Notes: generated by a model not told the origin, from the letters alone. A stretch of 64,000 nucleotides of DNA from an uncultured Bdellovibrionales bacterium (GCA_964500505.1 CAZCNN010000003.1:176-64175); one strand, 5' to 3'; positions 5,275 to 43,647 are shown, numbered from the stretch's first letter. A program made the numbers and translations.

Positions 5275-5475
5275 TTAGAACGAGTAAGGAAGGGAAGCTT
5301 TGATATTCTTGGCGACGGCTGGGTAGACATCGTTGTCGTTGCGCTTGGAACGAGTCTCGTCTCCGGTGTTGCGGGAGTTGTAGTGGTTTTGGCCAGAGGC
5401 GCGGGTCTTTAATTTTCCGCTCCCTGTGATTTTCACTTTCTTTACAACGGACTTGCGGGTCTTGAGCTTTGGCAT
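5275..5475 (-). CDS. rpmI: 50S ribosomal protein L35
   Basis: 66-aa basic protein MPKLKTRKSVVKKVKITGSGK...LPY, sitting between infC and rplT. Confidence 0.9.
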   Translation of the reverse strand: MPKLKTRKSVVKKVKITGSGKLKTRASGQNHYNSRNTGDETRSKRNDNDVYPAVAKNIKASLPYSF

Positions 5476-5510
5476 ATCGATACGAGGTTAATGCAATTAA
5501 TGGTGAGATT

Positions 5511-5635
5511 CTAGAACTTCAGATTTTGATACAGTTCGAGGCGCAGGTGAGGAGCAGAGTAAGCGATACTGTTCAGTTATCGTGTCGAGCACCGGAGCCT
5601 GCAACGATGAAATGGGTCAAAATCTGAAGTTCTAG
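5511..5635 (-). promoter_or_regulatory. perfect 19-bp inverted repeat (ctagaacttcagattttga) enclosing 87 nt in the infC-rpmI intercistronic region; candidate L20 translational operator or processing stem
   Basis: Arms at 5511-5529 and 5617-5635 are exact reverse complements. The structure starts right after the infC stop and ends about 35 nt before the rpmI start. Confidence 0.5.
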
Positions 5636-6184
5636 TTATTCGGGGACGATCAGGGCATTGAACCCCATAGGTCCACGCTTCACCTCTTCTTCAAAACGAT
5701 GAGGAACCGTGATGCTCGTGATAAAGGCGCTCAGGTTTTCTTTGGCTTTGTCCTGCATGGCCTTTTCGCGACCACGGAGTACGATTTCGATTTTTACTTT
5801 GTTCCCCTTGGTCAGAAATTTCTCAGCCTGTGTCTTTTTGAAGAGGAGATCATGAGTATCAGTGCGGAAACCGAGACGGATGCCCTTGGTTTCAACCTTT
5901 TTCTGCTTGGCCTTCTGTTGCTGCTCCTGCTTAGCGGCCTTGTACTGGAGCTTGCCGTAGTCAGTGATTTTGCAGACAGGAGGCTTGGCCAGAGGGGACA
6001 CTTCAACGAGGTCAGCTTCTTGCTCTTGAGCGAGTAAGATAGCTGCTGAGGTATCCATGATACCGCGATTCTCGCCATTCTGGTCAATGACCATGACCTG
6101 AGGCACGAGAATCTTCTCGTTGATACGAGCATGCTCTTTGACCTGGACCTTTGGTTTCGGTCGATTGTGTCTTCGTCGTCTCAT
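5636..6184 (-). CDS. infC: translation initiation factor IF-3
   Basis: Conserved IF-3 N- and C-domains (INEKILVPQVMVIDQNGE...). The operon context is infC-rpmI-rplT. Confidence 0.9.
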   Translation of the reverse strand: MRRRRHNRPKPKVQVKEHARINEKILVPQVMVIDQNGENRGIMDTSAAILLAQEQEADLVEVSPLAKPPVCKITDYGKLQYKAAKQEQQQKAKQKKVETKGIRLGFRTDTHDLLFKKTQAEKFLTKGNKVKIEIVLRGREKAMQDKAKENLSAFITSITVPHRFEEEVKRGPMGFNALIVPE

Positions 6185-6308
6185 TTTCAGCTTTTTTAAA
6201 AAAAGTGGACCCTGTTAGAAAACTGTCAAAACCGCCTCCTAGTAATTTTCGGCTGTCAGTACCTGAGATATTCTCATATATCAAGTATCGTTGGCAGACT
6301 TCTAACGG

Positions 6309-6710
6309 GGTGGAGTTGATGGGAATTGCACCCATGTCCAGAGAAGTTTTTCCAAAATAGTCTACAAGCGTAGTCAACCTTGTGTACGGGCAGGAGGTAG
6401 AAGGGAGACAAAATCCTCAAGCGAGTTCTTCTTTTGCAATACGTTCGGAGGGTAAAAGAAAAAGAAATTCCCTGGTCACGTCTCGATAATATGACACCAG
6501 TGGTTCCTTACCGAGAATCAGGATACTGATGGCGTCGCCAGTAATTAGGCGAGCGCAAGACTGTAAGAAGGGGCAAAAGCTTGCGCGATTGCATTCTTGG
6601 TCTTTGTGATGAAGTTTGCATTTATCATCGTGAGAACGAGATTTACGACCGTGTTCTCAAGGTCGGCTTGCGTATTTTGAAAGTACAACCTGTCGAGTCT
6701 AAACAACCCC
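6309..6710 (-). ncRNA. ssrA: tmRNA (SsrA), one-piece; about 402 nt
   Basis: On the minus strand the 5' end GGGGUUGUUUAGACUCGACAGG matches the tmRNA 5' consensus (compare B. subtilis GGGGACGUUACGGAUUCGACAGGG). The 3' end carries a T-arm-like hairpin AUGGG-UGCAAUU-CCCAU, then CAACUCC-A-CC, which pairs with the 5' GGGGUUG and gives the diagnostic G3:U70 wobble. An internal tag frame GCA AAC ... CUU GCG CUC GCC UAA encodes ...SYSLALA*. The gene lies downstream of smpB. Confidence 0.7.
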
Positions 6711-6830
6711 GCCTACACTACAAACAGAGTTTGTAGAGTATGGCGGGGCTTGCCTATACCCGCCACACTTCGATTCGCGATGTGGGCGGGCCTAGCCGCC
6801 TCCATCTGCTGAAAGTGTAAGCGCGATCCT

Positions 6831-7088
6831 CTAGCGGAGGTCGCTTATGCGTCGTTTGAGGTACTGTCTACCGAAGCCCGTCTTCAACTGAAGTTCTCTT
6901 TTCAGAGCATCTCCTTTTTGATTGCAGGCTTCGTAGTACAAAAGAATGAATGGTTTTCTTTCTTTTGTTACCTCGTTTCTTCCAGCATTGTGCTCTTGGA
7001 AGCGACGTTTTAAATTATTCGTGTATCCAATGTACAGCTTCTGATCTTTGAGACTTTGTAATACGTAAACGTAGTACATACATTTCAA
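6831..7088 (-). CDS. GIY-YIG nuclease family protein (stand-alone, 85 aa)
   Basis: YVYVLQS...KLYIGYTNNLKRRFQEHN is a canonical GIY-YIG motif. The start overlaps the smpB stop. Confidence 0.8.
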   Translation of the reverse strand: MKCMYYVYVLQSLKDQKLYIGYTNNLKRRFQEHNAGRNEVTKERKPFILLYYEACNQKGDALKRELQLKTGFGRQYLKRRISDLR

Positions 7089-7549
7089 CTTGTTCGCATC
7101 GCTCGCTCTATTCGGCGCTTGGCTTCGCGGGTACCAATATCGGCCCGACGGTCATATTCCTTTTTTCCCTTGCCAATAGCAAACTCAAGCTTCACAAGTT
7201 GCTTCTTAGTATACAACCGAATCGGGACTAAAGTCAAGCCTTCCGTGCGGTATTTCCCTATGAGAGAGGCAATTTCACGCTTGCGGAGAAGGAGTTTTCG
7301 TGGTCTGCTATCTTCGTGCTTGGTGTCGCGGTGGGCTTGTTTGTAGCGGGGTATGAGGGCGTTCGTCAGGTAGAGTTCACTCCCGCGGACGGTCACATAG
7401 GCTCCCTTGAGGCTCGCATGGCCGGTTTTCACTGATTTTACTTCGGCCCCGGTCAATACCAAACCGGCCTCATAGCGTCCTAGGAGGGCATAGTCGAACC
7501 CGGCTCGTTTGTTGTGGGCAATAGTAGTCATATGCTCATACTGTCCCAC
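7085..7549 (-). CDS. smpB: SsrA-binding protein SmpB
   Basis: 154-aa protein with SmpB hallmarks (IAHNKRAGFDY, LTGAEVKS, C-terminal basic tail). Confidence 0.85.
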   Translation of the reverse strand: MGQYEHMTTIAHNKRAGFDYALLGRYEAGLVLTGAEVKSVKTGHASLKGAYVTVRGSELYLTNALIPRYKQAHRDTKHEDSRPRKLLLRKREIASLIGKYRTEGLTLVPIRLYTKKQLVKLEFAIGKGKKEYDRRADIGTREAKRRIERAMRTS

Positions 7550-7667
7550 ATTTGGCTCAAATAAGCAAGTTTTTTGATTTTACATTGACGAAGTGGCAAA
7601 AGAATGATTTACTAGCGAGTCGCATGACGATAGGGTATGCACGTAGCTTTCCAACGAGGAGAAGTCA

Positions 7668-8159
7668 ATGAACCGCTCTCTCAAGATTGTTCTGACAGTT
7701 CTGCTGCTGGCTTTGAACGGCTCAGCAGTATTTTCGCAGGACGTGGTGATTTCAGGGAGCTCTGGAAAGAACTCAAGAGATCCCGTTTTGGTCAAGCGCC
7801 AGGGAACGTCACCGATTCTTACGGTGCAGCTGAAGGCTTCGGAGGCTGATACCGAAGCGCGTGAACTTCATCGCGAGATCCTCCGGGTGTTGAGTGATGG
7901 GTACGAAGAGAGGTTTTTTCCCTTGAAGAAAGACGGTGACAACCGGATAAATCAAACAATCTGGTGCACGGTCGTTGTGGCAAGTGACCTTGTTGCTTCT
8001 TCGATTGAAGTCCGGTGCGGAAGGCGCTTTCCGCGCCAAATCTTCGTGGGACTCACTGATGCTGGCATCGGTACATCTGAGTTCAGTGCTGTTGCCAAAC
8101 GTCTCCCGGCGATGATCGATGAGTTGTATAACTTGGCCACGAAGCTGCCTGACAATTAG
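7668..8159 (+). CDS. hypothetical secreted protein (signal peptide)
   Basis: N-terminus MNRSLKIVLTVLLLALNGSAVFSQ looks like a Sec signal. No family recognised. Confidence 0.5.
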   Translation: MNRSLKIVLTVLLLALNGSAVFSQDVVISGSSGKNSRDPVLVKRQGTSPILTVQLKASEADTEARELHREILRVLSDGYEERFFPLKKDGDNRINQTIWCTVVVASDLVASSIEVRCGRRFPRQIFVGLTDAGIGTSEFSAVAKRLPAMIDELYNLATKLPDN

Positions 8160-8176
8160 ATCCACAGAGGTCAAAT

Positions 8177-8216
8177 CTGCCGAGTCCCCAAAGAGGGTGC
8201 CGGCAGTTTTTCTTTT
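8177..8216 (+). terminator. intrinsic terminator downstream of secreted hypothetical gene
   Basis: ctgccg...cggcag stem with an internal ccc/ggg pairing, followed by tttttctttt. Confidence 0.5.
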
Positions 8217-8250
8217 ATAACATAATTCCACGGTCGTGGAATTATGTTAT
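8217..8250. promoter_or_regulatory. perfect 15-bp inverted repeat ATAACATAATTCCAC-ggtc-GTGGAATTATGTTAT; candidate operator for a dimeric regulator upstream of trhO
   Basis: Exact palindrome with a 4-nt spacer, 45-80 nt upstream of the predicted start at 8295. Confidence 0.5.
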
Positions 8251-8294
8251 ATTTTTATCGCAATAACTTCACTTTTTACGAACTTTCCGATAGG

Positions 8295-43564: not shown

Positions 43565-43647
43565 GTGCGGGGTTGACCCCGTTAGAGAACGCTGCGCCCT
43601 TGGCGCGACTTCAGTCGCTCCTAGCGACTTTTCTCTAACGGGGTTGA
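43565..43647 (+). repeat. structured repeat element copy 1 (about 80 nt): 13-bp outer inverted repeat CCCCGTTAGAGAA/TTCTCTAACGGGG enclosing two small hairpins; preceded by GCGGGGTTGACCCC motif
   Basis: Read directly. A second copy lies at 53878..53968 with compensatory changes in the first inner hairpin. Confidence 0.8.

Follow-up and report, generated by a model that had tools for sequence, protein, structure and literature searches.

The closest described counterpart of the gene reported here is one-piece transfer-messenger RNA (tmRNA, gene ssrA; RF00023 in Rfam), which works with the protein SmpB. We analysed a 64,000-nt stretch of DNA deposited as that of an uncultured Bdellovibrionales bacterium (GCA_964500505.1 CAZCNN010000003.1:176-64175; hereafter the window), in which positions 6710..6309 of the minus strand very probably hold a single intact one-piece tmRNA gene with a compensated elbow, accompanied by two passengers that would take no part in ribosome rescue, a GIY-YIG cassette and a miniature inverted-repeat transposable element (MITE). 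The locus is ordinary in kind, a standard one-piece tmRNA that is detectable by routine tools, and it fills an annotation gap. With known one-piece tmRNAs it shares a full-length match to the model, an acceptor stem with a G3:U pair, a discriminator A, a first pseudoknot (PK1) ahead of an alanine resume codon, a tag with the hydrophobic end ..ALA, downstream pseudoknots, a T-arm and smpB next door. It differs from them in its T-loop (UGCAAUU versus UUCRAUU), its D-loop (AG versus GG), its long tag of 24 residues, a CCA end that is not encoded, and a PK3/PK4 region that matches the model poorly.

The unusual parts of the locus have parallels elsewhere. T-loops of riboswitches (FMN, cobalamin) have the functional consensus (UGHAA)UU, which has been contrasted with the tRNA-type UUCRA (bioRxiv 10.1101/2022.12.26.521914). 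The loop in the window fits this UGNRA-type consensus exactly, but it stands in a tRNA-like domain and its partner is a D-loop analogue rather than a riboswitch T-loop receptor. The gene between smpB and ssrA resembles the UPF0213, or prokaryotic Slx1-like, proteins (1zg2, BH0048; 1ywl, EF2693; Dunin-Horkawicz et al., 2006, PMC1564403) in being a lone GIY-YIG domain of ~80-100 aa, although its sequence similarity to the solved members is low (E ~1e-6). As a small nuclease gene of patchy occurrence in or beside conserved, highly expressed genes, it is also comparable to the free-standing GIY-YIG homing endonuclease genes of T4-like phages (PMC2988022) and to the GIY-YIG open reading frames (ORFs) within rRNA genes of the candidate phyla radiation (CPR), which lie in non-intron insertions, are sparse and were probably acquired horizontally (PMC11270868). 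The insert at the tmRNA 3′ end is like bacterial MITEs in its perfect terminal inverted repeats (TIRs), lack of an ORF, size (60-135 nt), 4-bp duplications, many contexts and polymorphic presence. It is unlike the usual ones in that its subfamilies share only ~20 nt per end, and in that the copy in the window was inserted within the final 4 nt of the tmRNA gene and left the RNA unaltered.

The tmRNA gene

An initial annotation of the window had proposed an unannotated tmRNA on the minus strand downstream of smpB, and ARAGORN, the Rfam model and the orthologous loci agree on it. ARAGORN called a tmRNA at 6309..6710 (-) with the same tag frame as had been proposed, and RF00023 matched 6710..6308 with 103.3 bits (gathering score 47; E 2.9e-39) over the whole model (positions 1-374 of 374), well above anything expected by chance. 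The window has no other tmRNA. The ORFs at 6084..6377(-) and 6151..6360(+), rightly suspected of being spurious, are mechanical ORFs that overlap the RNA gene.

Both ends of the molecule could be read from the sequence (6692..6710 and 6311..6335). The 5′ strand of the acceptor stem, GGGGUUG (6710-6704, with G3 at 6708), is in place as quoted in the initial annotation and is followed by the D-loop analogue UUUAGACUCGAC (6703-6692), in which A6700 replaces the usual first G of the GG pair and G6699 is retained. The predicted T-arm hairpin was likewise found, as AUGGG (6335-6331), UGCAAUU (6330-6324, with the G of T-loop position 2 at 6329) and CCCAU (6323-6319), and it is followed by the 3′ acceptor strand CAACUCC (6318-6312) and the discriminator A6311. 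The two acceptor strands form seven pairs, among them G3(6708):U(6314), the G3:U70 pair that had been expected; a G3:U pair is present in 29 of 29 sequences. The proposed 3′ end, CAACUCC-A-CC, stands only as far as the discriminator: the sequence reads A-CCCC, CCA is not encoded and the Cs belong to the MITE. At this position the window has ACCCC, alleles without the MITE have ACUUU and some relatives have ACCA. The mature tmRNA is probably 6710..6311, to which CCA would be added afterwards.

Conservation of the structure was examined in an alignment of 29 Moranbacteria-type tmRNAs, with the nested helices given by RNAalifold and the second stems of PK1 and PK2 added manually. Across 65 pairs, 94.8% of the cells were paired, versus 39-50% when the 3′ partners were slid by 1-3 columns. 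Both sides had changed in 39 of the 65 pairs, and none of 500 shuffles reached this level of covariation. Acceptor pair 5 covaries (UA/AU/CG/GU), and the 5-bp stem of the T-arm has three covarying pairs, while its loop retains U1 and A5. PK1 (6632..6665) showed changes on both sides at all four pairs of stem 1 (CGAC/GUCG, 6665-6662 with 6649-6646) and at five of the six pairs of stem 2 (GAGAAC/GUUCUC, 6658-6653 with 6637-6632). PK2 (6481..6531) combines an outer helix with an inner hairpin and with a third helix between the loop and downstream sequence; pairing in its helices (8, 9 and 10 of the analysis) reached 100%, 88% and 98%, and both sides had changed at 4, 4 and 5 pairs, respectively.

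The tag frame GCA AAC ... GCC UAA, ending in ..LALA, lies at 6619-6545 and was reproduced by ARAGORN. It opens with the resume codon GCA, runs for 24 codons to a UAA stop and encodes ANFITKTKNAIAQAFAPSYSLALA. It has what is expected of a tag: it resumes on an alanine codon, has no start codon, is closed by a stop codon and ends in a hydrophobic C-terminus of degron type. When the tag was aligned with those of relatives, the frame, the resume codon and the stop coincided in all 29. The summed entropy by codon position was 14.3 / 8.7 / 28.1, with variation mainly at third positions, which is the signature expected of a translated frame. Sequence, structure and selection all fit a functional tmRNA. 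In one contig (L007, ~1460-1556; related loci carry L numbers here) the tag region has diverged (ANFITKAKNAFAQAFAPSFASATA, then a stop) though smpB and the GIY-YIG gene are identical to those of the window, and this divergence reflects recombination with a breakpoint in ssrA, or else a chimeric assembly.

Some results weigh against an intact gene of standard design. For PK3/PK4 a single covarying helix was resolved (6409-6373); the alignment is poor in that region, so that these pseudoknots are only partly resolved. A promoter and terminator scan of 5400-7700 gave nothing usable near the tmRNA, with counts no higher than in shuffled sequence, and no sigma-70-like promoter was found in the spacer between the GIY-YIG gene and the tmRNA (6711..6830). 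Furthermore, CCA is not encoded, and the 101-nt hairpin that forms the 3′ trailer in this strain might in principle delay 3′ maturation.

The gene order on the minus strand, assigned with Pfam and NCBIfam, is smpB (7549-7085), the GIY-YIG gene (7079-6831), the tmRNA, infC (6184-5636), rpmI and rplT. smpB (7085..7549), the protein partner of the tmRNA, encodes 154 aa and is intact (Pfam SmpB E 4.6e-50; NCBIfam equivalog PRK05422, 180 bits versus a cut-off of 130). infC (5636..6184; IF-3, Pfam IF3_N and IF3_C) is the first gene of infC-rpmI-rplT downstream of ssrA, in an order kept in relatives. The smpB-ssrA-infC synteny is maintained across Patescibacteria, and at nearly all related loci the tmRNA comes directly after smpB. 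The SmpB relatives among species-representative genomes belong to Candidatus Moranbacteria/Moraniibacteriota and other Patescibacteria, and from its sequence the host of the tmRNA is a Candidatus Moranbacteria-type (CPR/Patescibacteria) bacterium. In records titled 'uncultured Bdellovibrionales bacterium' or 'uncultured Gammaproteobacteria bacterium' (L008-L010, L012, L014, L015 and others) the smpB-ssrA-infC loci nest among Moranbacteria/Patescibacteria, and these titles are probably taxonomic mislabels. Seven metagenome contigs of the same species encode a SmpB identical to that of the window, which made comparison at strain level possible.

Besides the many tmRNAs that ARAGORN found at related loci, about twenty were recovered by Rfam. 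In L013, L023-L027, L031, L045, L046, L048, L050-L055, L063, L073, L078, L088 and L093, RF00023 gave full-length tmRNAs of 47-142 bits where ARAGORN gave none. Since ARAGORN missed about twenty of the group, CPR genomes annotated by ARAGORN alone may falsely seem to be without ssrA. In a single-cell genome (L055, 500-6560) the tmRNA, a GIY-YIG gene and a tRNA-Asp each occur twice, in mirror orientation and with identical scores, as a result of either a large inverted duplication or an assembly artefact.

If the established tmRNA-SmpB pathway applies to this locus, the transcript would be trimmed at its 5′ end at G1, presumably by RNase P, and at its 3′ end after the discriminator A6311. The gene does not encode CCA, so CCA would have to be added post-transcriptionally. 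Alanyl-tRNA synthetase (AlaRS) would then charge the RNA via the G3:U pair, the identity elements being intact. Together with SmpB, which is encoded ~375 nt upstream by an intact gene, the tmRNA would enter stalled ribosomes, where translation would resume on the GCA at 6619 and append the tag for proteolysis.

A compensated change in the elbow

The T-loop UGCAAUU had been described in the initial annotation as non-canonical. The deviation is real, but it is no oddity of the gene in the window: it is a variant found throughout the clade and compensated in the D-loop. We take the elbow positions concerned to be 18/19 and 55/56, with the contacts G18:psi55 and G19:C56. The U at T-loop position 2 is normally modified to pseudouridine. 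In 63 tmRNAs the D-loop GG was compared with T-loop position 2. GG was present together with U in 23 of them, and was absent (UAG, AUAA, UAAA ...) together with G in 38; the remaining two, which have odd T-loops, lack GG and have U, and none combines GG with G. The association was strong by Fisher's test on unique combinations (p = 4e-11). On a neighbour-joining tree of SmpB the two states are intermingled, which requires at least ~9 joint switches, a count taken from an approximate single-gene tree. UGU-type T-loops tend to accompany AA in the D-loop, a hint that a change to A:U is open to the neighbouring G19:C56-type pair as well.

The sole tRNA in the window has a normal UUCAAGU loop, and therefore the T-loop change is specific to the tmRNA. 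Taken as a comparison of sequences, G at T-loop position 2 with A in place of the D-loop G is a compensated tertiary variant common to many CPR lineages. We also considered whether the D-loops follow the T-loop-receptor consensus of riboswitches (YNANA), and the fit was inconsistent. A literature search on tertiary pairs between tmRNA T-loop and D-loop and on CPR tmRNA found no paper addressing switching of the elbow.

The GIY-YIG gene between smpB and ssrA

A stand-alone GIY-YIG gene had been noted between smpB and ssrA. The gene is indeed there (6831..7079, minus strand; Pfam PF01541, E 1.1e-18) and is of the minimal UPF0213/Slx1-like type, but the length of 85 aa and the overlap with the smpB stop codon that had been attributed to it stem from a mechanical TTG start at 7088. 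Homologues and gene callers place the start at the ATG at 7079 (MYYVYV..., 82 aa), 5 nt past the smpB TGA. PF01541 covers residues 1-71, the motifs YVYVL, LYIGYT, RR..EH and YYE, with the conserved Arg and Glu, are intact and there is no further domain; the nearest solved structures are the UPF0213 proteins 1zg2 and 1ywl.

To place the gene among its relatives, the contigs of eleven homologues were looked up. Seven of these (88-59% identical) lie at the smpB|ssrA junction and are followed by the tmRNA and infC. Counting also the species of the window and L014, the junction is occupied in 9 lineages, while about twenty lineages interleaved with these, at 75-94% SmpB identity to the window, have the junction without the gene. 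Two other homologues are found downstream of a tRNA-Glu gene, at distances of 87 and 226 nt, and for the last two (L098, L099) no stable-RNA gene was found within the fetched flanks. In all, nine of the eleven homologues were less than 250 nt away from a tRNA, tmRNA or rRNA gene. Further homologues were met upstream of tRNA-Lys, between two tRNA-Ser genes, abutting tRNAs and just after a tmRNA. In the literature we found nothing on an adjacency of GIY-YIG genes to tmRNA or tRNA, nor, in that on the UPF0213/Slx1-like family, any description of a fixed smpB|ssrA position with a trailing GC-rich hairpin. No second GIY-YIG copy was found in the window.

The spacer between the GIY-YIG gene and the tmRNA (6711..6830, minus strand) is GC-rich and strongly structured: besides the hairpin CCCGCCCACA..UGUGGCGGG it has a leader hairpin, CUACAAAC..GUUUGUAG, immediately ahead of G1. 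Its predicted fold has -51.5 kcal/mol (z -3.95), and none of 200 shuffles was as good. All other carrier lineages, with AT-rich and GC-rich hosts alike, have a related GC-rich hairpin (GCCCGCCCGCAnCGC...GCGnUGCGGGC) behind the GIY-YIG ORF, and in five lineages it adjoins G1 of the tmRNA.

Several small GIY-YIG genes lie less than 250 nt from tRNA genes and in the same orientation (L030 2139-2587; L086 6374-6704; L092 974-1253; L173 1838-2252; L174/L175 1701-2288; L125 1389-1872). In L030 the 5′ end of the tRNA-Ser is copied over 18 nt behind the GIY-YIG stop codon, and in L175 a unit of a GIY-YIG gene and a MORN-repeat gene is repeated in tandem. The published CPR rRNA insertions have a parallel in L142 (5798-6090; also L164), where a GIY-YIG gene 48% identical to that of the window lies inside a 23S rRNA gene (Rfam LSU, 5374-8251) between the arms of a perfect inverted repeat of 21 nt, CCCAGCACCTAACAAGCTTTA. 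Unlike these, the copy in the window lies beside the tmRNA gene, without an intron or a flanking inverted repeat. In Algoriphagus sp. A40 (Bacteroidota; L098, 2485-2767) a GIY-YIG gene that is 58% identical splits a gene of the 23S_rRNA_IVP family and is bounded by 13-nt inverted repeats, ACCCTGTGAAATA.

The identity of the GIY-YIG proteins hardly follows that of their hosts, measured on SmpB+IF3+L20 (Spearman rho 0.16). At equal host divergence it spans 65% to 88%, and between the most distant hosts it is 69%, versus 44-46% for SmpB+IF3+L20. Presence/absence polymorphism at one conserved site, decoupled from the host (9 with, ~20 without), is a pattern of homing-endonuclease type. A free-standing homing endonuclease was considered and set aside on account of the 82 aa, the single domain and the missing module for site-specific DNA recognition; the gene is not classed as such because it has no DNA-binding module, in which it also differs from the phage Seg enzymes. 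On balance, these comparisons favour, with moderate confidence, a selfish cassette that rides on stable-RNA loci.

Some observations pull the other way. The gene in the window has no flanking TIR, inverted repeat or target duplication, its protein has no DNA-binding domain, and the flat identity of 59-74% between most lineages could reflect a plateau set by strong constraint on a short domain and not transfer. They would also suit a gene long established in the smpB-ssrA spacer of Parcubacteria-type lineages, inherited vertically, repeatedly lost and not now mobile, as would the constancy of the site and the loss that can be seen in progress: in two same-species contigs, L002 (~6590) and L005 (~1517), a 1-nt deletion in an A-run (window ~6957) frameshifts the GIY-YIG gene, and gene callers skip it. 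We regard such a history as unlikely, however. The hosts of the window and of L088 are 74% identical and their GIY-YIG proteins 88%, whereas with L097 in place of L088 the values are 76% and 65%. For the most distant hosts, conservation of the protein is 23-27 points above that of SmpB+IF3+L20, which counts against vertical descent, since a gene dispensable enough for ~20 losses should not exceed these proteins in conservation. Moreover, L092 has an extra GIY-YIG copy where L091 has none, and the same protein family has demonstrably been inserted elsewhere.

A tight, operon-like position after smpB is equally expected of a functional partner, and this too speaks against a selfish cassette. The protein might be a working accessory of trans-translation or of the metabolism of tRNA-like RNAs, acting in the removal of damaged mRNA or the processing of pre-tmRNA and kept in an smpB-GIY-ssrA operon. 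In 8 of the 9 lineages the gene occupies the same junction in the same orientation, 1-12 nt after smpB, its catalytic motifs are intact, and homologues repeatedly adjoin tRNA genes. RNase R, encoded beside smpB-ssrA in Bacillus, would be a precedent. Prokaryotic Slx1-like GIY-YIG domains are, in addition, found in fusions and operons with RNA methyltransferase-type proteins, from which a role in RNA metabolism has been suggested (PMC1564403). An accessory role nevertheless seems improbable to us, more so than vertical descent, as most close relatives have an otherwise intact smpB-ssrA locus but not the gene, as the gene is frameshifted in the two contigs of the same species and has an identity uncorrelated with host divergence, and as homologues also occur inside 23S rRNA insertions and in a split protein gene, which is the behaviour of a mobile gene.

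The MITE at the tmRNA 3′ end and other insertions

Compared with L001/2/4/5 and L008, which read ...CAACUCCA-CUUUUUUU, the window carries 105 extra bases at the tmRNA 3′ end (6206..6310, minus strand). They consist of a 101-nt element (6310-6210; TIRs CCCCGUUAGAAG... and ...UUCUAACAGGG) and of TCCA (6209-6206), a duplicate of the last four bases of the tmRNA gene (6314-6311). The element ends in CCCCGTTAGAAG... and ...TTCTAACAGGG, its TIRs are at least 11 nt long and its hairpin folds with -31 kcal/mol; the U-run that formerly followed the gene now lies behind this hairpin. It is a member of a multi-copy, CCCCGTTAGAAGTCTG-ended MITE family. Its 20-nt end was found in 70 metagenome contigs, in which 37 complete copies could be distinguished; they are 60-135 nt long, stand in unrelated contexts and are mostly flanked by 4-bp duplications (e.g., TCAA, TTGA, CATA, TAAG, CAGA). 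A second copy in the window (43577-43643), intergenic and 67 nt long, is CCCCGTTAGA-ended with perfect 13-nt ends, is flanked by the duplication TTGA (43573-43576 and 43644-43647) and folds with -42.8 kcal/mol (z -7.0). The MITE is polymorphic within the species, with empty sites in L001/2/4/5, and it recurs at the identical tmRNA position in L011, which is of another species. tmRNA 3′ ends are a usual integration site of phages and islands; at the one in the window only the 101-nt insert was found, with infC directly after it.

A gene crippled in this strain, by the non-canonical T-loop or by the MITE, has in its favour that the T-loop lacks the U that is normally pseudouridylated, that CCA is not encoded and that a 101-nt hairpin follows the discriminator. 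We consider this very improbable. Dozens of species have the T-loop variant fixed, in every case with compensation in the D-loop; selection acts on all helices and on the tag frame, and smpB is intact. As to the MITE, its duplication of TCCA restored ...UCCA, the gene still reads ...CAACUCCA and hence the mature tmRNA sequence would be unchanged. Trimming and CCA addition are needed either way, as the MITE-free alleles (ACUUUUUUU) also lack CCA, and the recurrence of the MITE in the other species (L011) likewise speaks against damage. An intact tmRNA gene with the MITE as a passenger is the reading that we retain.

The nature of the element was considered further. Its GTTAGAA/TTCTAAC resembles the core sites of an integron attC site, which was rejected because most copies have 4-bp target duplications. 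A Tn3-type derivative was rejected on the duplication, of 4 bp and not 5 bp, and on the ends, CCCC and not GGGG. An ORF-less derivative of a TIR-GIY-TIR transposon, a possibility prompted by L128, L098 and L142, was not established; the repeat of L142 is the stem of the 23S rRNA insertion, no intact GIY-YIG copy with CCCCGTTAGAAG ends was found, and the GIY-YIG gene of the window itself lacks a flanking repeat. In L128 (~5620-5480, minus strand) one CCCCGTTAGAAGTCTGCCAA end is followed after 10 nt by a decayed GIY-YIG frame (WYVYLL, a stop, ..YIDLTRDLQKRILKHNSGK) and then by an antitoxin/toxin-like gene pair, and no matching right MITE end was found nearby. This hints that MITE ends and GIY-YIG genes are linked. 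At the Moranbacteria locus L023 (4918-4968) a different hairpin insert of 52 nt, also without an ORF, occupies the identical tmRNA 3′ site with TCCA duplicated, and it is bounded by the same ACCCTGTGAAATA repeat as the GIY-YIG gene of L098.

Other features were seen around these genes. The gap between infC and rpmI in the window (5511-5635) holds a 125-nt element with inverted ends of 19-27 nt (CTAGAACTTCAGATTTTGA; fold z -6.6), which, since the gap is only ~18 nt in L001/2/4/5, is a second strain-specific hairpin insertion in the operon. Long imperfect palindromes occur in the ssrA-infC spacer of L014, L016, L018, L019, L028, L029 and L034 and in the smpB-ssrA spacer of L011, L013 and L019; they are built of short tandem units, e.g., AGCTTNN or GGAAATTAGAAATT, and differ in each species. 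A 163-aa ORF without a family match lies between a rhodanese-type gene and smpB (7668-8159, plus strand) and is present in L002/3/5/6/7 and absent from L001, and L002 has an additional 165-aa ORF between the arginyl-tRNA synthetase gene and the rhodanese-type gene.

We hold a wider proposal only tentatively: the domain-only GIY-YIG genes of CPR bacteria (~82 aa) may be a specialised parasite of stable-RNA loci, sitting at the smpB|ssrA junction with a GC-rich hairpin of their own, beside tRNA genes and inside 23S rRNA, and moving between distant hosts, possibly together with hairpin elements that have CCC...GGG ends, like the MITE next to this tmRNA gene. Separately, the elbow of CPR tmRNA would have switched at least ~9 times between a tRNA-type G:U and a riboswitch-type A:G. 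What goes beyond the routine at this locus is the compensated elbow found across CPR, the recurrent GIY-YIG cassette and a MITE placed exactly on the 3′ end; none of them alters what the locus is. If a census confirms it, the link of GIY-YIG genes to tmRNA, tRNA and rRNA genes would extend what is known of selfish genes in the streamlined genomes of CPR bacteria, and it would suggest, in a form open to testing, what the uncharacterised UPF0213 family might do. The compensated change of D-loop and T-loop is a clean natural experiment on the tRNA elbow, in which a UGNRA-type T-loop appears to be usable in a tRNA-like domain that has to be accepted by AlaRS, SmpB, EF-Tu and the ribosome alike, and the pseudouridylated U appears to be dispensable.

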